From IMG/VR virus record IMGVR_UViG_3300012200_000001, positions 1-64,000 of that record: 64,000 nucleotides of DNA, one strand, 5' to 3'. The stretch is from a virus. Taxonomy: Duplodnaviria; Caudoviricetes. Shown piece after piece: positions 36,394 through 64,000 of the stretch. The position numbers were made by a program, and so were the translations under genes. The notes beneath the pieces are model-generated. The model was not told the DNA's origin. It ran no database searches and was given only the letters and a program-made list of their open reading frames with translations. Each line of letters starts with the position of its first letter. Position 1 is the stretch's first letter.

Positions 36394-36876
36394 ATGTTGA
36401 CTCCGGCCCCCGTTCAAACCGACTACATTCGCTATCAACTTCCCGCCCAAAACGGGATGCTTGCTAGCTCGATCAACTACTCGGCGGACACGCGGATTGT
36501 AGAGGTCGTCAGTGGCGGTGCCACTGCTATCCCGTTTGGTCGCGCCGTCAGTCAAGGCGTAAAACCCAAAGGCTGCCACCTCGGCGGCACCGCCTTTGTG
36601 GGCCTTTCCCGCGCTGATCCGACGGTCGCTCGCTCGGAGACTCTTCCTATCGATGAGTATCCGGAGAACGACAACGCGGGCATCCTGGTGACCGGCGACC
36701 TGTGGGTCATCGTTGCCGGTGATGTGACTGCTGGCCAGTCGATCCATTACAACACAACCGACGGCAAGCTTAGCGCCGCCGGTGGCACCGCCATCGACAG
36801 CTCACGCTGGATGACGACGGCTACATCTGGCCACCTCGCCGTCGCACGTCTCGGCAACATCGCTGGCAAAGCGTAA
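36394..36876 (+). CDS. Head decoration / cement protein
   Basis: Between scaffold and MCP; IPFGRAV, G.LWV, W.T....G.LA..RL. Confidence 0.75.
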   Translation: MLTPAPVQTDYIRYQLPAQNGMLASSINYSADTRIVEVVSGGATAIPFGRAVSQGVKPKGCHLGGTAFVGLSRADPTVARSETLPIDEYPENDNAGILVTGDLWVIVAGDVTAGQSIHYNTTDGKLSAAGGTAIDSSRWMTTATSGHLAVARLGNIAGKA

Positions 36877-36897: not shown

Positions 36898-37866
36898 ATG
36901 AATATGCGCCTTGATATCTACGACAACCCTCAACAGGCGCTCGGCTTCCTGTTGAGCCAGACTGCTTTCATCGAGCAGGAAGTTTACCGGACGCAATACC
37001 CGGAAATAATTTATCAGCAGCTCATTCCTATCGACACCGCTGCTGGTGAGTGGGCCAAATCGGTCACCTACTTCAGCCTCGACCGGGTCGGTCAGGCTCA
37101 ATGGCTGAGCAACGTAGCGACCGATATGCCGTACGCCGATGTCAATCGTAATAAGTACGAGCAAGGCATCGAGATGGCTGGCATTGGCTACACCTACACG
37201 CTCGAGGAGATCGGCCAGGCGTTGATGATTCCTGGTTTGAACCTCACCGGGGAGCGTGCCGACGCAGCAAGATTCTCCTACGAAATGTTCATGGACAACC
37301 ATGCGTATCGTGGAGATGCGACCAAGAACGTGACCGGATTGTTCAACAATCCGACCGTCACGGTGGTCACAGCGAAGACCGGTGCAGGAGGTTCGACGCA
37401 CTGGTCGCTGAAGACGGCGGACGAGATCATCGGCGATGTGCAGGATGCTCTCACCGGCATTTACGCAGGAAGCCTGACCGTTGAGATGGCGGACACGGTG
37501 TTGCTGCCAGTTGGCGAAATGCAGAAGCTCGCCAACATTCGCATCCCGAATACCTACGGCAACGCACTCGACTATCTGGCTCGCTACAATCTCTACACGT
37601 TCAACACAGGTGCGCCGCTCACGATCCGCGGTGTGATTGGTCTCGACTCTGCGGGCGCAGACGGTGGCGGACGCATGGTCGTATATCGGCGCGATCCGCG
37701 TGTGCTCAAGTTACACATTCCAATGCCGCACCGCTTCCTGCCGGTGTTCCAGCGTAGTGCGATCCAGTTCGACATCCCTGGCATCTTCCGCGTTGGCTCC
37801 GTCGAGGTTCGGCGTCCGGGTGCCGTGCGGTATGTCGATGGCATCAGCGGTGTTGGGTCGCCCTAG
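36898..37866 (+). CDS. Major capsid protein (DUF2184 family, HK97 fold)
   Basis: FL.SQ...IE..VY..QYP, G.GY.YTLEE.GQA, GLFNNP, GRMVVYRRDP..L...IPMP..F, GSVE.RRP.A..Y.DGI. Confidence 0.92.
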   Translation: MNMRLDIYDNPQQALGFLLSQTAFIEQEVYRTQYPEIIYQQLIPIDTAAGEWAKSVTYFSLDRVGQAQWLSNVATDMPYADVNRNKYEQGIEMAGIGYTYTLEEIGQALMIPGLNLTGERADAARFSYEMFMDNHAYRGDATKNVTGLFNNPTVTVVTAKTGAGGSTHWSLKTADEIIGDVQDALTGIYAGSLTVEMADTVLLPVGEMQKLANIRIPNTYGNALDYLARYNLYTFNTGAPLTIRGVIGLDSAGADGGGRMVVYRRDPRVLKLHIPMPHRFLPVFQRSAIQFDIPGIFRVGSVEVRRPGAVRYVDGISGVGSP

Positions 37867-37943: not shown

Positions 37944-38249
37944 ATGCCGACGAAGAAAAGTGAGACTGAGTGGAGCAATGAGCCGGTGGCGGACCTCGAT
38001 GCGGAGAGGATGAAACCCACACCGCGTGAAAAGATGGTCGCTGACCTGACCGAAAAGGCTAAAGACGTTAAGCCGCAGCGCTACGACATCACCAGCAAGA
38101 ACGCCAAGGCGCTGCGCGTGGTGCACGATCATCACGGCAACAAAGTCGCACTTCAGCCCGGAGAGACAAAGCGCAGCATCCTGCTGCGTCCGGATCTCGC
38201 CGAATATCTCGGCAAAGGGGACCTGACCCTGACGGCGAGCACAGTGTGA
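37944..38249 (+). CDS. Small post-capsid protein (probable virion component)
   Basis: GGAGGAG SD; C-terminal domain aligns without gaps to the N-terminus of the 61497 ORF. Confidence 0.7.
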   Translation: MPTKKSETEWSNEPVADLDAERMKPTPREKMVADLTEKAKDVKPQRYDITSKNAKALRVVHDHHGNKVALQPGETKRSILLRPDLAEYLGKGDLTLTASTV

Positions 38250-38680: not shown

Positions 38681-39139
38681 ATGCCGGGCTTCACCACAGC
38701 AATGCCGACCAGTTACAAGGCGGAGCTGCCGCAGGCGATTCACAACCACACGGCAATAACCGGCGACGATTTCAAATGCGCGCTTGGCGTGGGAACGCCA
38801 TCTGGTACATTCGACGCAACCACAACCAACTATTCGGCGCTTAGCTCCGACGAGGTTGCCAACGGCAACGGCTATACAACCGGAGGCTTCGACTTCACTG
38901 CGGCCAACAACACCACACCATTAAGCGCAAGCGGCACGGCCTACTGGCAGTGGGGCGTGAACCCGAGCTGGTCGAGCGCGACGTTCTCGACCTCGGGCTG
39001 CATCATCTACAACGCGAGCAAGTCCAACCGCGCAGTCTATGTCGGCTCGTTCGGCGGCATACAGTCGGTGACCAACGGCACGCTCACGCTGGTCATGCCG
39101 ACGAACGGGAACACGACTTCGCTGCTGAGAATCCAATAG
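38681..39139 (+). CDS. Conserved virion structural (fibre-base-like) protein
   Basis: SYKAEL...HN....D.FK.AL...TT.Y....EV..G.GYT.GG...W..AT....G.IIYN. Confidence 0.7.
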   Translation: MPGFTTAMPTSYKAELPQAIHNHTAITGDDFKCALGVGTPSGTFDATTTNYSALSSDEVANGNGYTTGGFDFTAANNTTPLSASGTAYWQWGVNPSWSSATFSTSGCIIYNASKSNRAVYVGSFGGIQSVTNGTLTLVMPTNGNTTSLLRIQ

Positions 39140-39148
39140 GGGCGGCTA

Positions 39149-40186
39149 GTGGCCCTGGTCTTCACAGACGCCTTCGACTCCTACGCCGCGACGGCAGACC
39201 TCATCAAGAAGTGGGGCACAGCATCCGGCGGCTTCACGTGGGGCGCGACTGCTGGCCGCAACGGTGCAGGGGGTGTCACATGCGCGGCTGGAGCCGCAGG
39301 CGGTATATTTCAAACCCCGAGCATTCTTGGCGGTGTCGCGAGCGGAATCTTTCACTTTGGTTTTTACATCAAGTTTTCGGCGATCCCCTCTAGCCTCTAT
39401 GAGTTTCTGGAACCTGTCCGCTCGGATACCGGGGCTCCAGGGCACTTGCTGGGAATCCAAACCGGCACTGGCTTTCTGCAGCTGATAAATGCGGTTGCCA
39501 CCGTACAGGCGACCGGAACCCGCAATGTCTGTGATAATAATTGGCACTGGATTGAGGTAAAGTACAATTTAGCGAACGCAGCCAATTTACAAACGGTATA
39601 CGTTGACAGCACGCAGGATATTTCTGGGTCATTCAACGTGACCAATGCTTTTACTTTTGGGCCTATTCGCTTTGTGCAGGCCAACGTGGGCTGCGCGATC
39701 AACGGAATAGACGACGTCATCGTTTACGACGACACCGGAGATTCCCCGAAGGATTCGGATTACCCGCTAGGCCCGCGTGAGATACTGACGTTACGCCCGA
39801 ATGGCGACAGCGCGGTGCAATTCACGCCAAACAGCGGTGTGACCAACTGGACACGGGTGAATGAGACCGTTGCCGATGGTGACACAACCTATGTGCAGGA
39901 CGGCAACGTAGGCGATCAAGACCTCTATACCTATGCCGCTCCCGGTATCACGCCGTCGCAGATCAACGGCGTGATGCTCAACTCTTACGTAGAGAATCCG
40001 AACGCGGGCACACTCAACTTCAAGCAGATTTGCAAGAACGGCGCGACGCAGATCGACGGCACCAGTATGCAAGCGCCGTCGGGCTACACGACCAAGCAGC
40101 AGTATTTCGGACACGATCCCAACACCGGCTCGGTGTGGACGCCGAGCACGCTCGCCACGGCAACATTCGGAATGAAGGTCGCCTGA
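39149..40186 (+). CDS. Concanavalin/LamG-like virion protein (paralogue of 57163-58224)
   Basis: D.FD.Y...WHWIEVK...IDDV.VYD...PNGD...DGDTTYV. Confidence 0.65.
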   Translation: MALVFTDAFDSYAATADLIKKWGTASGGFTWGATAGRNGAGGVTCAAGAAGGIFQTPSILGGVASGIFHFGFYIKFSAIPSSLYEFLEPVRSDTGAPGHLLGIQTGTGFLQLINAVATVQATGTRNVCDNNWHWIEVKYNLANAANLQTVYVDSTQDISGSFNVTNAFTFGPIRFVQANVGCAINGIDDVIVYDDTGDSPKDSDYPLGPREILTLRPNGDSAVQFTPNSGVTNWTRVNETVADGDTTYVQDGNVGDQDLYTYAAPGITPSQINGVMLNSYVENPNAGTLNFKQICKNGATQIDGTSMQAPSGYTTKQQYFGHDPNTGSVWTPSTLATATFGMKVA

Positions 40187-40187
40187 G

Positions 40188-40844
40188 ATGCAAAATGGAA
40201 AGATGCCACTCGTTGCACTCTGCCTTCCATCCGGCGGGACGTGGAAGGCGAAAATGGGAATGGATCTGCTCTACCTCGTCACCTACACGCTGAGCCAGGG
40301 CGTGCAGATCATGCCGATTTGCAACGAAGGTTCATCGATATCGAATGGCCGCAATCACCTTGTTCTCAACGCGCTGGCGATCAAGGCCGACTACCTGTTC
40401 TTCGTGGACACCGATATCACCCATCCACCGGACGGGCTGCTGCGATTGAAGGCACATGACAAGGACGTGGTGTGCGCCACGTATAACCGGCGCATTCCAC
40501 CCTACGACACGCTCGGCGTTTGGGAGGGCGAGTGGAAGCCGGACAAGGACGGCAAGGTCGGTATCGTCAAGGCAACCAAGATTCCGACCGGTTTCCTGCT
40601 CCTGAAGGCGGTAGTGTTCAAGAAGATGAAAGGGCCGCCGTGGTTCATGGAGGTTTACACGCAGGCAACCATCAGTGACCGCAATCAAACCGGCCACATC
40701 TCCGACGATTACGTGTTCTCGCACCGGCTAATCGAGGAGGGTTTTCAACCGTACATCGATCTCGACCTGACGTTTGAGATTGGTCACATCGGCGAGCGCG
40801 TGATCGTGGCCGAGCGGCCCAAGCTGCAGCAGGCCGCGCAATGA
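40188..40844 (+). CDS. Glycosyltransferase, GT-A fold (GT2-like)
   Basis: ALCLPS, RN.LV..AL...ADYLFFVDTD, TGFLL....VF, SDDY.F, GHIG. Confidence 0.85.
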   Translation: MQNGKMPLVALCLPSGGTWKAKMGMDLLYLVTYTLSQGVQIMPICNEGSSISNGRNHLVLNALAIKADYLFFVDTDITHPPDGLLRLKAHDKDVVCATYNRRIPPYDTLGVWEGEWKPDKDGKVGIVKATKIPTGFLLLKAVVFKKMKGPPWFMEVYTQATISDRNQTGHISDDYVFSHRLIEEGFQPYIDLDLTFEIGHIGERVIVAERPKLQQAAQ

Positions 40845-41179
40845 GAAATCTTTTACCCGATTGGATCAAGCGCCGCGAAGATCGCCACGGCTACCGGCTG
40901 ATCGGGGCATATGCACGAACCGATCCGAAGGACGTGCGCGATGTCGCGCGCTTGTGCTTGGAGCGATGCCGCAACATGCGCTGGCATCCCAATATCGAGG
41001 ACCAACTCGCGCTTGAGTTTTTCCTGGGTGCATCTGTGGGTGCAGTGGCGGCGGGAAGCACGCTGCTGGCAAACCGGATCGCCTGGGCCGCCACCAACAT
41101 TGTGGCTAAGCACGGTATGCGCGGAATCGCCGCTCTTGAGCGTGGAGAGGCGGACATTCCCAAGAATGGAGCGAACTGA
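40841..41179 (+). CDS. Hypothetical protein
   Basis: Operon position. Confidence 0.6.
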   Translation: MRNLLPDWIKRREDRHGYRLIGAYARTDPKDVRDVARLCLERCRNMRWHPNIEDQLALEFFLGASVGAVAAGSTLLANRIAWAATNIVAKHGMRGIAALERGEADIPKNGAN

Positions 41180-41745
41180 TGCCCAGTCAGGGATGGGAGC
41201 AGGCCATTGTCAATGCGCAGGCTGCGGGCAGTTCGGTCTCCAATACCACGACATCAACCACGCTGTTGCCGACGCACGCGCTGTTCACGCTTCCCGCCAA
41301 CTTCTTCAACGTCGGTACGCTGCTCAAGTTCACCAGCATCGGCCAGATCAGCAATGTGGTGACGACGCCTGGCACGATCACGCTCGACGTGCGCTTCGGT
41401 GCGGTTGTCGTGTTCAATGGTGGCGCGGCGCAGATGTCTACTACGGCGCACACGACGCTGCCGTATTGGTGGGAGGCAATATCAACGTGCCGCGCCATCG
41501 GCTCGGGCACCAGCGCAAACCTGATGAGCCAGGGCAGGCTGACGGGTCAGATGATCTCGGCTACGGCGGTAGCCGACTCCACCTCGACGCATGGCACGTT
41601 GTTGACACCCAACACGGCGCCCGCGGTGGGCACCGGTTTTGACAGTACGGCCACACAGCAGATCAACCACTTTGTGACATTCAGTGTCACGACCAACCCG
41701 ACCAACATTACGCTTCAACAATGGATCGTTGAGTCCTTGAACTAA
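41179..41745 (+). CDS. Thr-rich beta-structured virion protein
   Basis: Composition and position. Confidence 0.65.
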   Translation: MPSQGWEQAIVNAQAAGSSVSNTTTSTTLLPTHALFTLPANFFNVGTLLKFTSIGQISNVVTTPGTITLDVRFGAVVVFNGGAAQMSTTAHTTLPYWWEAISTCRAIGSGTSANLMSQGRLTGQMISATAVADSTSTHGTLLTPNTAPAVGTGFDSTATQQINHFVTFSVTTNPTNITLQQWIVESLN

Positions 41746-42272
41746 TGGCCAACCCCCCGCCTACAAACAGCCCACGGTCTAACAAGCCGTATGCGGTCCC
41801 TTTCACAAAGGGGCCATTTCGGCGTTTCCCTCAGCTTAAATCCGGGGCATCTCCAAGCGTTCGGCTATCGCAGCAATATACGGAGGTCGTCCACAGCGGC
41901 AGTGATCCCAAGATCCGGCTATCGCAGCAGTACACTGAGGTCGTTCAGAGCGGCGGCAACACCAAGATTCGGCTGTCGCAGCAATACATCGAGGTCATTG
42001 TCAATTTCGGCCAACCCCCGCCCAACAACGGCAAGGGCAAGGCTCCGGGGCAAGGCAAGAAGCCGCCTAAAGATGTAACGGCATTGTGGCTCAAGCGGCT
42101 CCGTTTTGCCGAGGCGCGCAAGACCTGGCGCTTCATGCCGAATGCCCAGGTCTACGCGAGCCCGGGCTTTGCGTATGTTCCGCAAGTGCCGCCCCCGTAC
42201 ATGTGGCGCGACCGCAAGCATGTCGTCACGGTTGGCACTTCTTCCCGCGCAGTGAGGACAGAAAATGAGTAG
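41745..42272 (+). CDS. Protein with three 17-aa RLSQQYxEV repeats
   Basis: VRLSQQYTEVVHSGSDP / IRLSQQYTEVVQSGGNT / IRLSQQYIEVIV. Confidence 0.7.
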   Translation: MANPPPTNSPRSNKPYAVPFTKGPFRRFPQLKSGASPSVRLSQQYTEVVHSGSDPKIRLSQQYTEVVQSGGNTKIRLSQQYIEVIVNFGQPPPNNGKGKAPGQGKKPPKDVTALWLKRLRFAEARKTWRFMPNAQVYASPGFAYVPQVPPPYMWRDRKHVVTVGTSSRAVRTENE

Positions 42273-42738
42273 GCGATACACAATCGTTGAGCCGTCCTTC
42301 GCTGCGGCGGCCAACATGAATCTGATCGAGATCAAGGGTGCGTCCGGCAAGGTGCTTGAAGTGCTGCGCTGGTGGTGGAGACCTACCGATAACACGCTCG
42401 CGCCCGCGCAGGTGCTCTACACCCGCTGTCGATTGCTTCCAGCGACAGTGACGGATGCGACAGGCGGCGTGAATAGCTCGCCGTCAATTATGGCCAACGA
42501 CGGCGGTGACACCGCTGCTGGCTTTACCGCGATCACCAAGGGCACGGCGGGAGCCTCCACATCCGGCACGGCGCGGCTCTACGACTCGGCAGGCTCGCAT
42601 TCCTATAACGGCTATGACCAGACCATCGAGGAGGGCGTCACAGTCAAGTCCGGTGAGGCGTTTGTGTTTGAGATCGTCGGCAGCGTCACGACAACGATCA
42701 ACATTACGGTCGGTGCGGAGGTTGAGGAGATCGGATGA
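42265..42738 (+). CDS. Probable virion structural protein
   Basis: Beta-rich; operon position. Confidence 0.6.
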   Translation: MSRRYTIVEPSFAAAANMNLIEIKGASGKVLEVLRWWWRPTDNTLAPAQVLYTRCRLLPATVTDATGGVNSSPSIMANDGGDTAAGFTAITKGTAGASTSGTARLYDSAGSHSYNGYDQTIEEGVTVKSGEAFVFEIVGSVTTTINITVGAEVEEIG

Positions 42739-43751
42739 CGCGCGTTCGCTACCGCGAGAGAACTGTTGTCCGGCGTCTGGTCGCGGGCGGCCCATTCGCT
42801 GGGCCGGCAACATCCATCGATCTGACTGCGATTTTCGGGACTGGGACGGCGGGGACGCTCGCGCCGCAAATCAGCGATGTTCTTAATCTCGTTGGAGTGC
42901 TCGGCACCGGGGCAGCAGGTACGCTAGGGCCAATTACCCAGCTCACGCTCCCCAGCATTCATGCAACCGGCACCGCGCAGGCGTTGGTTGCTGCGGTCTC
43001 GGTGGCGTTGCAGTCCGCACACGGCATCGGAGCTGCGGGCACGCCCGTGGCTGGCATTGCTGTCCCGCTCAGCAGCGCGCACGGCATCGGCACGCCTGCC
43101 ACATTCGCGATCTCGGTGGGTCAGACGCTTTCGCTGGTTTCCGTTCATGGCATTGGCCAGATGGCATCCTTCGGGGTGCAGTTCGGCAAGGACATCGCAC
43201 TCGCCTCAGTATTCGGCGCGGGCGAGGCGGGTCTGTTGGTCAACAGGGTGGCTGTTCCGCTCGGCTCTGTGTTTGGTGCGGGGCATGGCTCTGCATTCTT
43301 CATCGAGGCTGGCAGCAATGTCCCGTTGGCTCCGGTTTATGGATTAGGGGCGGTTGCCAGCCTTACTACTGCCGAGCGCGTGGCGCTGGCAGCCATATTC
43401 GGCGTTGGCACAGTTGAGGAGCTTACACGTGAATTTGGTCTGCCGCTCACTGGCGCACTTGCCTACGGCGTGGCGGCACCGGTTGGGCTTGAATTTGAGG
43501 TATTCCTGCCGGGAGTGTTTAGCATCGGCCTGGCCGAGCCGTTTGAGCACATCTCATTTGCGCCGTGGCTGCTACGGCGGGTTGCGCTGCATGGGCAAGA
43601 GCCAACGGCGACCCTGCAGGGCGAGCGGCCTGTCCCGGTTATCAGGGGAGCGCAGTCAAGCCCGCTCCTGCGCGGGCGGCGTCTCAGCATCGATCTGCGC
43701 GGGATCGTGCCGCGCGTGACGATTAAGGGCGATTGGGAGAAAGACCATTGA
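42735..43751 (+). CDS. Gly/Ala-rich repeat fibre-like protein
   Basis: About a dozen ~20-aa repeats with L.S(A/V)(H/F)G.G core. Confidence 0.7.
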   Translation: MTRVRYRERTVVRRLVAGGPFAGPATSIDLTAIFGTGTAGTLAPQISDVLNLVGVLGTGAAGTLGPITQLTLPSIHATGTAQALVAAVSVALQSAHGIGAAGTPVAGIAVPLSSAHGIGTPATFAISVGQTLSLVSVHGIGQMASFGVQFGKDIALASVFGAGEAGLLVNRVAVPLGSVFGAGHGSAFFIEAGSNVPLAPVYGLGAVASLTTAERVALAAIFGVGTVEELTREFGLPLTGALAYGVAAPVGLEFEVFLPGVFSIGLAEPFEHISFAPWLLRRVALHGQEPTATLQGERPVPVIRGAQSSPLLRGRRLSIDLRGIVPRVTIKGDWEKDH

Positions 43752-44132: not shown

Positions 44133-44513
44133 ATGATAGTCCCCACTGTCACGAATATGAAATTTAAGTTTCCTGAGTTCAGGAATGTAGACGATGGCAC
44201 CGTCGAGTTCGCGATTGAGGAGGCGGTGGTCACGTGCGGGGGCGAAGGTCATTGGATCGATGATGCAAATCAGACGCTTGCCATGATGTACTACGCGGCG
44301 CACTTGCTACAGGTCTCCATCATGCGGGCGGGGTCCGGTACGGGCCAGATCATTTCGAGCGAGCGCACGCCGGAGTTGTCGGTCACCTATGCAGTACCGA
44401 ATATGAATGCGCCGATTGATTTTACCATGACGATCTACGGCGAGCGCTTTCTCGGTTTGGTAAGGAAGAACTTTCCCGCCATTCTTACGGTGGGCAGCGC
44501 GACGGCGATGTGA
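44133..44513 (+). CDS. Head-tail adaptor (DUF4054 family)
   Basis: F.FPEF..V.D..V..A...W...YYAAHLL...SE...ELSV.YA...T.YG..F. Confidence 0.85.
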   Translation: MIVPTVTNMKFKFPEFRNVDDGTVEFAIEEAVVTCGGEGHWIDDANQTLAMMYYAAHLLQVSIMRAGSGTGQIISSERTPELSVTYAVPNMNAPIDFTMTIYGERFLGLVRKNFPAILTVGSATAM

Positions 44514-61290: not shown

Positions 61291-61500
61291 GTGACAACAG
61301 TATTCCTAGTGACAGCGGATCAAATCCCGATACTCGTGTTTTCTACAATGAGCGCTGCCCAGCGGTTCTGCTCGACGCGACCAGATTTAAAATATCATGA
61401 GTTCACGGTGTTGGAAGAATCGCGTGCTGTAGCAGAAGGTGAATGCCCGGAAACAGCATGTCCAGGACGGATGGCCGCTGGGTTACATTCACTGCCATGA
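61291..61500 (+). CDS. Small hypothetical protein
   Basis: GAGG SD, GTG start, ATGA overlap with next. Confidence 0.5.
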   Translation: MTTVFLVTADQIPILVFSTMSAAQRFCSTRPDLKYHEFTVLEESRAVAEGECPETACPGRMAAGLHSLP

Positions 61501-64000
61501 TCTGCACGATACACAACGCCTCAGCCTCAGCTCGCATATTCTATGATGTGCAGAAGCGCGAAGTTAGGGTTGATCCCGGTTGTGTGCGCTACGCCGACAT
61601 CGATGAGGGCACCTACGTAAGTCTTCGAGCCCGTAGTGATCTTATCGTGAAAGGGGCTTCATTCGCGAAGCATGCGCCGCCGGAGCCGCCACCCGCAGCG
61701 CTGCCGATCACTCAAAAATCTCCGGTCGTCATTACTGGGCACTTCGGGATTGGAGACAACCTACATCAGCGCGCGGTGATACGCGAATTGATGCCGACGC
61801 ATGATGTGTGGCTGCACACGTGCCATTTCAATTTGTATCACGACTTAATCGCACAAGGCCTGAAGCTGGTCATGCGGGCGACCGGACTGCACGCGCAGGC
61901 GAAAACCGTCGCGCGCGAGCAGCAGCAGTTTGCGGACGCTAAGTTTCCGGCACCGCCGCGAACCGCGCGCCAGTTGAAGATCGGCTATCCCAAGGTGTTG
62001 ATCGATCAGCACGGCTCAATCCTAGAGGCGATGTTCGGCTGCGTCGGTCTCAAGATGCCGGAGCGCCCTGACTTCAGTTTGCCTATCAAACCAGAGTGGC
62101 GTTGCGCGATTCGCGAGGCGATCAGCAAATGGAATGTTGGTGGCAAGCCATTGATGGTGCATCGGCCGATTGTCGTTCGCGGGGAGTGGGATGGTAAGTC
62201 ACGCAATCCAGACCCGGTTGCTTACAATGAGCTGTATCGATCACTGCGGGACAGGTTCTTCGTGGTGAGCATCGCGGACCTACAGACGGGGCGGGAATGG
62301 ATCGACGGGCCACGGCAGAACGTAGACATCGAACTGCATAAGGGGGAGCTGTCTTTCGAGGAGATGGCGGCGCTGTTTTCCGAAGCAAGTATGGTATTCT
62401 GCAACGCGGGCTTCGCTCCGGTGCTGGCGCAGGCAGTAGGCACTCCTGTTGTCGTAGTGTACGGCGGACGAGAGAGCTTCCGCACCACCCAGCGCGTTGG
62501 CGCGCACCTTGCTCCCACGCTGCCGATTGATGTCATCAACCCCTGCGATTGCCATAGCGCGAAGCATTCGTGCAACAAGCGCATCGATCTCCCGATAGCG
62601 CAGCAACGCCTGCAGCAGTTTCTGGAACAGCGCAGAAGCACGCTTCTCTTCGGCACGTTCTATGTCGATAGCCCGGATCGGGATGCTCTGACGGATCTAT
62701 GGAAGCGGCTGCACCTGGCGCTCAATGACGACTGCGATGTTCTCGCGGTCGACTCGCATTCACCGATCAAAAAGTTCGAGGACTGGCCACCTTATGATGG
62801 CAAGCGACACCGCCGCATGTATTTCAGCTTCCCGGATAACATTGGCCATCTCAGTAGGCCAAAGGTTACTCTCGGCCGGGACGGATGGGGACGCGCCTTC
62901 TGCAAGGGGCTCGAGGTTGCGTGCGAACTCGGTTATGAGTACGTCGCGCACATCGAAGGCGACAGCTTGTTTCGCCTCTGCGTGTCAGATGTGGTCAAGC
63001 AGATGAAGACAGAGGGCATCGACTGTGCCTCAACTAATGTGCATGGGTTGAGAACGCCCGGATTAGACAAGCAATGGATCGAGACAGGCTTGCTGTTTTT
63101 CTCGACCGATTATCTGCGGCGCAGCAGATTCATCGAACGCTATAACTGGCCCGAGCGTCAAGCATCTCCAACGCCGGAGCGCTACATTCGATTGACGATT
63201 TTGGAGAAGGACCTTGACGATAAACAATTGCGGATCATGCCGTGGAAGGCGCTGCGCGCCGACAAGAACCAGATTACCAAAGACAATGTGTCGTCGTTGA
63301 ATCTCGATTGGATCACGCATCAGCATGACAGCGCGCAGCAGGATGTCTACAGCAAATTCGTTGACATGGCTCTGAAGGCGGTGCGGCTGGATGGATCAAC
63401 ATCCGGGGAACTGGCGGGGACGACTGACAGCGTCCCCCGCATCGTCGTCCCCAGACTGAAGCTCAACCTCGGCTGCGGAACTAACAAGCTCGCGGGCTGG
63501 GACAATCATGATGCTGACGTGGACATCACCCGGCGGCTACCGTGGGCCAATGACAGCGCCAGCCATATCTTCATCGAGCACTGCGTCGAGCATGTGCCGT
63601 ACAAAGCGGCCATCGAGTTTTTCAAAGAGGCGCACCGCGTGCTCGCCCCTGGCGGCGTGCTGCGCGTCACGGTTCCTTCGCTAGAGCAAATCGCCTGCTG
63701 CGATGATGCTGACTATCACCGTTTCACTACCAAGTGGCAGTCGTTCGGTTCGAATAAGCGCGGCGCAATGCATGCCATCATCTACGCGCATGGTCATGAG
63801 ATGGTCTGGAATGCGCAGCTCCTCAGAGACACGCTCTACTTCGCGGCCTTCGATGATGTCCGCCTCTGTAAGCTGGGTGAATCGGATGATCCAGTGCTGC
63901 GAGGCGTTGAAGGGCATGGCAGGATTATCGGAGAAAAATTCAACCGCATTGAATCATGCTCAGTCGAGGCGCGCAAGAGCGGTCACTTGGCAGAAGCGAC
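61497..64000 (+). CDS. Multidomain glycan-synthesis enzyme (partial, runs off window): post-capsid-like domain + GT9-like + GT-A-like + methyltransferase
   Basis: Manually translated open frame of over 830 codons with no stop; G.FGIGD.L..R, L.F.E.AAL...A..V......LAQAVGTP...YG, HIEGDS, LNLGCG...EHC.EH...E..RVL.PGG.LR..VP. Confidence 0.85.
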   Translation, partial: MICTIHNASASARIFYDVQKREVRVDPGCVRYADIDEGTYVSLRARSDLIVKGASFAKHAPPEPPPAALPITQKSPVVITGHFGIGDNLHQRAVIRELMPTHDVWLHTCHFNLYHDLIAQGLKLVMRATGLHAQAKTVAREQQQFADAKFPAPPRTARQLKIGYPKVLIDQHGSILEAMFGCVGLKMPERPDFSLPIKPEWRCAIREAISKWNVGGKPLMVHRPIVVRGEWDGKSRNPDPVAYNELYRSLRDRFFVVSIADLQTGREWIDGPRQNVDIELHKGELSFEEMAALFSEASMVFCNAGFAPVLAQAVGTPVVVVYGGRESFRTTQRVGAHLAPTLPIDVINPCDCHSAKHSCNKRIDLPIAQQRLQQFLEQRRSTLLFGTFYVDSPDRDALTDLWKRLHLALNDDCDVLAVDSHSPIKKFEDWPPYDGKRHRRMYFSFPDNIGHLSRPKVTLGRDGWGRAFCKGLEVACELGYEYVAHIEGDSLFRLCVSDVVKQMKTEGIDCASTNVHGLRTPGLDKQWIETGLLFFSTDYLRRSRFIERYNWPERQASPTPERYIRLTILEKDLDDKQLRIMPWKALRADKNQITKDNVSSLNLDWITHQHDSAQQDVYSKFVDMALKAVRLDGSTSGELAGTTDSVPRIVVPRLKLNLGCGTNKLAGWDNHDADVDITRRLPWANDSASHIFIEHCVEHVPYKAAIEFFKEAHRVLAPGGVLRVTVPSLEQIACCDDADYHRFTTKWQSFGSNKRGAMHAIIYAHGHEMVWNAQLLRDTLYFAAFDDVRLCKLGESDDPVLRGVEGHGRIIGEKFNRIESCSVEARKSGHLAEA

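Follow-up and report, generated by a model that had tools for sequence, protein, structure and literature searches.

At the end of a 64,000-base stretch of a phage genome (Caudoviricetes; IMG/VR record IMGVR_UViG_3300012200_000001), here called the window, begins a gene for a 1017-residue protein in which an N-terminal β-domain of ~55 residues precedes four glycan-building enzyme modules. The same domain recurs in the protein encoded directly after the major capsid gene of this phage. We propose that it serves as an address tag, by which the enzyme would be taken to a partner used by the post-capsid protein; such tag-addressed virion glycosylation is the best reading we can offer, and we hold it with belief and doubt in about equal parts. 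The window comprises bases 1-64000 of a 77,862-bp contig (56.6% G+C) and shares its numbering with the genome. A direct terminal repeat of 123 bp (1-123 and 77740-77862) indicates that the contig is a complete genome. The features that carry the argument are the following:

36898-37866, plus strand: major capsid protein of the PF09950 type (PF09950, 1.1e-78; phrog_264, 2e-86)
37944-38249, plus strand: post-capsid gene, 101 residues, with the shared β-domain at residues 45-98 (bases 38079-38246)
61497-64000 in the window, ending at 64550 in the genome, plus strand: multi-enzyme gene, 1017 residues
61497-61664, plus strand: N-terminal β-domain of ~55 residues (the tag), homologous to the domain of the post-capsid gene
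61716-62639, plus strand: GT-B glycosyltransferase module, GT9-like, fold match over residues 73-381 (VIA; phrog_6804)
62640-63386, plus strand: GT-A glycosyltransferase module with a GT2-like fold, fold match over residues 378-621 (VIA)
63450-63986, plus strand: class I S-adenosylmethionine-dependent methyltransferase module, residues 652-830 (PF08241)
64014-64547, plus strand, outside the window: fourth module, residues 840-1017 (hhalign match to the phrog_4603-type module)

A preliminary description of the window had drawn attention to a likeness between the N-terminus of the enzyme and the product of the post-capsid gene. In direct pairwise comparison this likeness is marginal: BLASTP of the two copies returns no alignment at E <= 100, and a gapless comparison yields 7 identities in 42 columns, a score reached by 3.9% of shuffles. 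At the profile level it is solid. When 25 enzyme N-termini were compared with the 16 members of the post-capsid protein family using hhalign, the probability was 97.5 with an E-value of 5.6e-12 over 51 columns, whereas the best of 40 column-shuffled control alignments reached a probability of 2.1 and an E-value of 0.022. A hidden Markov model (HMM) of the enzyme N-termini run against the six-frame translation of the genome recovered the post-capsid open reading frame (ORF) as its sole other match (E 7e-8), and the post-capsid HMM directly matches the N-termini of related enzymes (E 1.8e-5 to 1.7e-3). The post-capsid proteins of distant phages carry the consensus motifs Y-D-I-x-N-P-T, R-V-I-Y-D-G-I and P-G-E-T and are plainly like the enzyme N-terminus. 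These profile comparisons indicate that the domain is truly homologous in the two settings.

The AlphaFold2 models of the two proteins show the same order of elements in this region. In the tag, strands at residues 2-7, 13-16, 22-25 and 30-34 are followed by a helix at 37-44 and a last strand at 49-53, all at a predicted local distance difference test score (pLDDT) of 94-96. The post-capsid protein (pLDDT 82.7) has a disordered start and a helix at residues 27-40, after which the shared domain runs through four strands, a helix and a strand as in the enzyme. Residues N7, R13, D17 and P27-G28 of the tag are conserved, and the tag as a whole is conserved across enzymes that are only 44-73% identical. 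We considered concerted evolution of the two copies and rejected it, as the likeness within a phage is no greater than that between phages. In a 57-column tree of the domain copies there were 21 label changes as against 66 in shuffles, a clustered arrangement that does not form one clade. We also set aside a single capture of the tag: this tree is too weak to settle the matter, and some of its rows labelled as small proteins are enzyme fragments.

The conservation pattern within the domain bears on one alternative, in which the glycan is attached to the shared domain. On this view the glycoprotein would be the post-capsid protein, and the copy at the N-terminus of the enzyme would prime the chain or serve as a self-glycosylated handle, much as glycogenin does. 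A nearly invariant asparagine in an N-P-T/S context is found in both sets of sequences, along with a conserved arginine and aspartate, and the GT-A module matches the glycogenin fold as one among many GT-A folds. However, these residues may be merely structural, Asn-Pro-Thr is not a known sequon, and an enzyme of this kind is missing from most phages that encode the small protein; for instance, a 94% complete genome (G016) encodes the small domain protein and no enzyme. We consider the glycoprotein and the self-glycosylated handle both quite improbable.

To gauge the spread of the domain, we searched 1.84 billion proteins with a profile of both types of copies and recovered 271 clusters (at 50% identity), most of whose members are proteins of 72-170 residues. 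Neither the tag nor the post-capsid protein matches a family in Pfam, PHROGs or NCBIfam. None of 130 family members tested matches any shared Pfam family, and hence we regard the domain family as undescribed. Of 129 small members, 67 carry the domain at the N-terminus and 29 at the C-terminus. Its genomic position is fixed: of 80 viral loci that have a related capsid gene, 49 contain it, in each case in the gene that immediately follows the capsid gene, and all 33 loci with a capsid protein at least 59% identical have it in the post-capsid gene. A degenerate DNA pattern for the domain family matched only one locus.

The tails of the small members (P0142-P0285) are rich in proline and alanine, at 14% each. 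In 63 of the 91 tails of at least 15 residues, at least three lysines or arginines lie within the last 12 residues. P0173, one of these proteins, has a HeH/Rho-N-like helix motif at its end, and so does gp8 of phage Pam3. The basic ends and this motif would suit a tail facing the DNA or the terminase. Such basic-ended disordered tails would also suit an internal, DNA-facing post-capsid protein and thereby lend some color to a second alternative, namely that the domain loads the enzyme into the head as cargo, to be injected for the modification of a host target. However, a glycan builder of four steps would be an odd injected effector, and tag-less relatives of the enzyme retain the linkage to the capsid gene. 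We see only a slim chance for this scenario.

The longer members of the family are fusions with the domain at the N-terminus, either single or in tandem. The preliminary description had suggested looking for fusions of the domain to glycosyltransferases, and N-terminal fusions to several types of glycan enzymes indeed came to light. Behind the tag we found GT-B modules, the fourth module alone (P0178), a partner of ~300 residues whose C-terminal half reads as a GT9 C-lobe by sequence reading alone, and a GT-A-like partner (P0141) with a weak match to GT2 (E 0.083). The last two partners are enzyme-like and, judged by motifs and the weak GT2 match, are putative glycosyltransferases. P0141, P0157 and P0175 have the tag twice in tandem ahead of the enzyme part, which may hint that the domain works in pairs. 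On a more tentative footing, and with somewhat less than even confidence, we suggest that the post-capsid domain is a dedicated addressing module for virion glycosylation, which phages with PF09950-type capsids would have grafted in one copy or two onto four or more kinds of glycan enzymes and which would dock them on the prohead or capsid or on the post-capsid protein. The phages carrying it probably infect Gram-negative hosts.

The enzyme itself consists of the N-terminal β-domain, a GT-B module, a GT-A module, a methyltransferase and a fourth module. Its AlphaFold2 model, built on 64 homologues, has a mean pLDDT of 89.9; confidence is low in the linkers at residues 57-71, 631-650 and 835-838. 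The preliminary description had spoken of a triple enzyme: it placed the GT-B, GT-A and methyltransferase modules correctly, as judged from the VIA fold matches and PF08241, and its count fell one short of the four enzyme modules present, as the bases of the fourth (64014-64547) lie beyond the window. The open frame that it followed from ATG 61497 to the window end is likewise real; it contains no stop within the window and reaches one at 64550. All homologues begin at the equivalent methionine (M-I-Y-x-x-x-N), and the start codon overlaps the stop of a small upstream ORF as ATGA; on these grounds we take ATG 61497 as the start. The public gene call (P0155) begins 18 codons earlier, at ATG 61443, a start that both the homologue alignment and the ATGA overlap disfavor. 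The upstream ORF, for which no family match was found in Pfam or PHROG, is:

61291-61500, plus strand: small ORF, 69 residues, whose stop overlaps the enzyme start codon as ATGA

In a VIA search of the PDB the GT-B module (residues 73-381) matched 3tov with a Z-score of 20.3 (root-mean-square deviation 3.4 Å, 271 residues aligned), followed by TibC (Z 19.7), WaaF (Z 18.3) and WaaC (Z 17.3). It scores 5e-35 on phrog_6804, and hhalign pairs it with gp11 of phage PAJU2 at E 3.5e-33. Against PF01075 it obtains 12.5 bits (E 0.089), below the gathering cut-off of 22, and for this reason we call it GT9-like rather than a member of GT9. Invariant among the homologues are G84, G86, D87, H90 and R92. 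The module closes with a C-x-C-H-x5-C cluster at residues 350-359 (62544-62573), in which C350 and C359 are invariant and C352 and H353 at least 90% conserved. This cluster may bind a metal; PAJU2 gp11 carries a similar C-x-C-x6-H-x-C.

The GT-A module (residues 378-621) is matched by VIA to TarP (Z 15.3), RmlT (14.9), A64R of PBCV-1 (14.5) and SpsA (14.3), and it has no match to any Pfam family, including the Pfam glycosyltransferase families. Its H-I-E-G-D-S motif at residues 485-490 reads by sequence as an ExD variant of the DxD motif. D419, H485, E487, G488 and S490 are invariant and D489 is at least 90% conserved. A third alternative, hypermodification of DNA, meets its evidence here: the transferases would place a methylated glycan on modified bases of the phage DNA, just as phage GT-A enzymes with TarP-like or A64R-like folds and GT-B enzymes glycosylate 5-hydroxymethylcytosine (bioRxiv 10.1101/2023.12.21.572611). 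However, the gene lies in a late structural operon and not among replication genes, and the best matches of the GT-B module are GT9 enzymes rather than the β-glucosyltransferase of T4. Moreover, the genome has neither a Tet/JBP dioxygenase nor a thymidylate-synthase-like (ThyA-like) hydroxymethylase gene; we dropped DNA glycosylation on this ground and regard it as very improbable.

The methyltransferase module scores 25.6 bits on PF08241, above the cut-off of 21.2, and 6.8e-8 on the methyltransferase family phrog_6636. Its L-N-L-G-C-G motif occupies residues 655-660, and within the L-G-C-G-T-N loop G659, C660 and G661 are nearly invariant. The fourth module has no Pfam match and no PDB sequence match. 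Its profile aligns by hhalign with the N-terminal phrog_4603-type module of tag-less relatives of the enzyme (probability 88, E 3e-6, 116 columns); the relatives' module scores 2.3e-30 on phrog_4603, a family annotated as 'alpha-2,3-sialyltransferase', while the direct match of the fourth module to phrog_4603 is weak (E 0.24). PF01973 (MptE-like/DUF115) has no match in this genome. Relatives show sub-threshold matches to it (E 0.005-0.04), and the nearest named Atlas cluster is PF01973. The PF01973 match of one protein (P0326) was discarded as family evidence, for it sits in the other half of that protein and not in the homologous one. The fourth module thus bears a weak, distant resemblance to MptE-like or 'sialyltransferase' phage proteins, and its homologues are also found free-standing as proteins of 170-200 residues.

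Homologues of the enzyme number more than 120, many of them on phage contigs of 72-82 kb, and they show several architectures. The complete series of tag, GT-B, GT-A, methyltransferase and fourth module is seen in 58. A further 44 have GT-B, GT-A and methyltransferase, some with an N-terminal extension of 200-250 residues that is the phrog_4603-type module, and seven have tag, GT-B, GT-A and fourth module. For 12 of 12 tag-bearing enzymes checked, the phage also has the post-capsid domain. Five carriers of tag-less enzymes, two of them complete, have another capsid type and lack both a PF09950 capsid gene and the domain; one phage with a GT-B lacking the tag (G023) has no detectable domain. 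Among 17 records with related capsid genes, the full enzyme is found only in G014 and the GT-B alone in G023. In two phages (L020:8260-13011 and L035:10001-16580) the enzyme region holds an extra set of GT-A and methyltransferase, located ~1.9 kb further on in L035, and the modules have hence been duplicated or split in some phages.

The enzyme set is tied to capsid and neck genes in three phage lineages. In the present phage it is found 23 kb downstream of the head module, behind unannotated late genes. In a Mesorhizobium-type provirus (L025, 8362-13103) a tag-less enzyme of 948 residues starts 5 bases after the capsid gene; it comprises the phrog_4603 module (first 206 residues, 2.3e-30), GT-B, GT-A and methyltransferase, and is followed by a FkbM-family methyltransferase (PF05050, 3e-9). 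A homologue of the enzyme (P0117) is encoded in the chromosome of M. opportunistum. In PAJU2 and D3, genes for a sialyltransferase-like protein, a GT-B and a methyltransferase lie between the head-closure and tail-terminator genes. The preliminary description had further inferred that the enzyme docks on the capsid and builds a glycan there. This is borne out in part, namely in the enzyme assignments, the homology of the shared domain and the linkage of enzyme and capsid genes across lineages.

These distributions bear on a fourth alternative, modification of the host envelope. Here the enzyme would act in lysogens or towards the end of infection and alter the lipopolysaccharide core, the O-antigen or an exopolysaccharide, perhaps so as to block adsorption of progeny or rival phages, and the tag would be a functionless remnant of recombination with the post-capsid gene or a piece for oligomerization. 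The GT9 fold is common to the lipopolysaccharide heptosyltransferases WaaC and WaaF, homologues bear the database name 'ADP-heptose:LPS heptosyltransferase', and the tag-less versions occur in proviruses. However, the gene lies within late structural operons in the three lineages, adjoining the capsid gene in one, and outside any lysogenic-conversion module. The tag, moreover, is conserved despite the divergence of the enzymes, recurs on other enzyme types and occurs in tandem, which argues that it is under selection. We judge an envelope target unlikely, and equally the notion that the tag is a remnant or an oligomerization piece.

Under tag-addressed virion glycosylation, the ~55-residue domain would act as an address tag ahead of the four glycan-building modules and would guide the enzyme to the post-capsid protein's partner. 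This could be the prohead or capsid formed by the PF09950-type protein; alternatively, the tag could pair with its like in the post-capsid protein, which would then be the partner. There the enzyme would, at a late stage of infection, assemble a short glycan, probably a methylated one, on one of the virion proteins. In the lineage in which the gene has moved away from the capsid genes, the enzyme carries the domain of the post-capsid gene. Consistent with a protein target, the best structural matches of the GT-B module include TibC, a heptosyltransferase with a protein acceptor. The sequences show the domain composition, the homology of the tag, its fixed post-capsid position, its fusion to several glycan enzymes and the link between enzyme set and capsid genes; that the domain binds the capsid, which protein and sugars are involved, and that methylation caps the chain are inferred.

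The fold relationships of the domain are less distinct. A VIA search of the post-capsid model against 48,161 PDB chains returned none above Z 5; the top match was the N-terminal domain of Bacillus subtilis YqbF (2hjq, Z 4.6, 47 residues aligned, root-mean-square deviation 2.4 Å), and the seventh was the C-terminal domain of lambda gpFI (2lsm, Z 3.9, 56 of 61 residues aligned). Sequence and profile searches of the PDB with the domain gave nothing significant, the best hit being Protein S (E 0.022). Lambda gpFI and YqbF (of the skin element) are encoded right after a major capsid gene. Like the post-capsid protein, both are small and two-part with a ~50-residue β-domain and the post-capsid gene position; no sequence relation to it was found, and the fold scores are within the range of chance. 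Published work shows gpFI to link the capsid with the terminase-DNA complex (PMC13595911). In BFVD there were only weak matches to many small phage proteins, including a 114-residue 'virion structural protein' of Achromobacter phage AchV4, in which a 115-residue protein encoded just after the capsid gene was found in virions by mass spectrometry (PMC7996906). The YqbF, gpFI and AchV4 matches are weak hints of capsid binding, to be treated as leads and not as proof. The post-capsid proteins of two cultured relatives, Pam3 gp8 and RHph_I65 gp039, look similar by eye; the similarity is not significant and we did not accept them as homologues.

The head genes follow the pattern of the myophage Pam3, with the cement, capsid and post-capsid genes in succession and then a DUF4054 adaptor at 44133-44513. 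The capsid protein is 46% identical to that of Pam3, and the gene preceding it is:

36394-36876, plus strand: cement (decoration) protein of the Pam3 gp6/E217 gp24 type (PF22758, 2.2e-23)

This predicted cement protein already fills the role of capsid decoration. In the paper on the Pam3 structure, the post-capsid protein of that phage (gp8) goes unmentioned. Between the post-capsid gene and the adaptor lies a ~5.9-kb insert of about ten genes, whose products include Ser/Thr-rich proteins as well as one that is LamG-like. We considered the 'appendage' genes for Ser/Thr-rich proteins (38681-43751) as the source of a conserved acceptor and dropped the idea, because a close relative (G001) lacks the insert and yet has the enzyme. 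A second small GT-A-like gene, of 218 residues, is found within the insert at 40188-40844, with 26.8 bits on Anp1/GT62 (cut-off 28.8) and a weak match to GT2. In the mycobacteriophages studied in 2023 by Freeman and colleagues, the acceptors are reportedly C-terminal extensions of capsid and tail-tube proteins.

Several points weigh against tag-addressed virion glycosylation. GT9 enzymes classically act on lipopolysaccharide. The capsid protein of this phage has no Ser/Thr-rich tail of the sort reportedly glycosylated in mycobacteriophages, the tails of the small proteins being rich in proline and alanine instead. Two enzymes with the fourth module (L043 and L044) are tag-less even though their phages have the post-capsid domain, and the tag is thus not required. 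That the domain would bind the capsid or its paralogue is read from sequence and context, the YqbF and gpFI fold scores fall within the range of chance, and nothing in the genome matches PF14553 (YqbF). The phage is known from uncultured material. Finally, TarP-like and A64R-like GT-A folds are also present in phage enzymes that glycosylate DNA (bioRxiv 10.1101/2023.12.21.572611).

Certain known systems offer partial parallels. A064R of PBCV-1 combines two glycosyltransferases with a methyltransferase, builds capsid glycans and methylates the terminal sugar (PMC7826918). Like A064R, and also A111/114R, the present enzyme unites several transferase modules and a methyltransferase in one viral polypeptide; its GT-A module fits A64R domain 1 at the fold level only (Z 14.5), with no homology at the sequence level. 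A064R differs in belonging to a giant algal virus, in acting on N-glycans and in having neither a GT9-like GT-B nor an MptE-like module, and it shows no address domain in common with a gene of the capsid cluster, as is present in this phage. A second parallel comes from mycobacteriophages, where phage glycosyltransferases expressed with the structural genes glycosylate virion proteins; the virions of Che8, Corndog and Myrna are glycosylated (Freeman et al. 2023, cited in PMC12363180). Those enzymes are separate single-domain genes of actinobacteriophages with no docking domain described, whereas virion glycosylation is a prediction in the present phage.

Another parallel is the D3/PAJU2 cassette of Pseudomonas siphophages, with gp10 (sialyltransferase-like), gp11 (GT-B) and gp12 (methyltransferase) in the structural operon. 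PAJU2 gp10 resembles our fourth module (hhalign probability 39, E 3e-4). Unlike the present enzyme, the cassette consists of three separate genes and has neither a GT-A module nor an N-terminal tag; no paper on it was found in the literature searched. TibC assembles into a dodecamer and has an N-terminal β-barrel of its own as well as a four-Cys iron finger (PMC4358343). The GT-B module resembles TibC/AAH in fold (Z 19.7) at 12% identity, and by alignment offset its invariant Asp87 falls near the catalytic Asp110 of TibC (PMC4358343), while the iron finger differs in position from the C-x-C-H-x5-C cluster.

Virus-encoded builders of capsid glycans are thus already known, and multidomain glycosyltransferase/methyltransferase proteins of uncultured phages are present under automatic names in structure databases. 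New here are a family of four-module enzymes linked to capsid genes, the permuted and split variants of that family and, most importantly, a hitherto undescribed tag that the enzyme has in common with the post-capsid gene. To our knowledge, glycosylation of virions by virus-encoded enzymes is documented for no more than a few mycobacteriophages and for giant algal viruses, and we know of no account of how such phage enzymes find their targets. If the proposal is true, the tag would provide a testable targeting mechanism, a substrate-targeting system for phage protein glycosylation that is new to date, for which D3/PAJU2 in Pseudomonas and the Mesorhizobium proviruses are tractable systems. It would also furnish a sequence marker for spotting glycosylated phages in metagenomes. 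As glycan coats influence antibody recognition in mycobacteriophages, according to the statement cited in PMC12363180, such coats may matter for phage therapy. Lastly, it would hint at a role for the widespread and unstudied small genes that follow the capsid gene.

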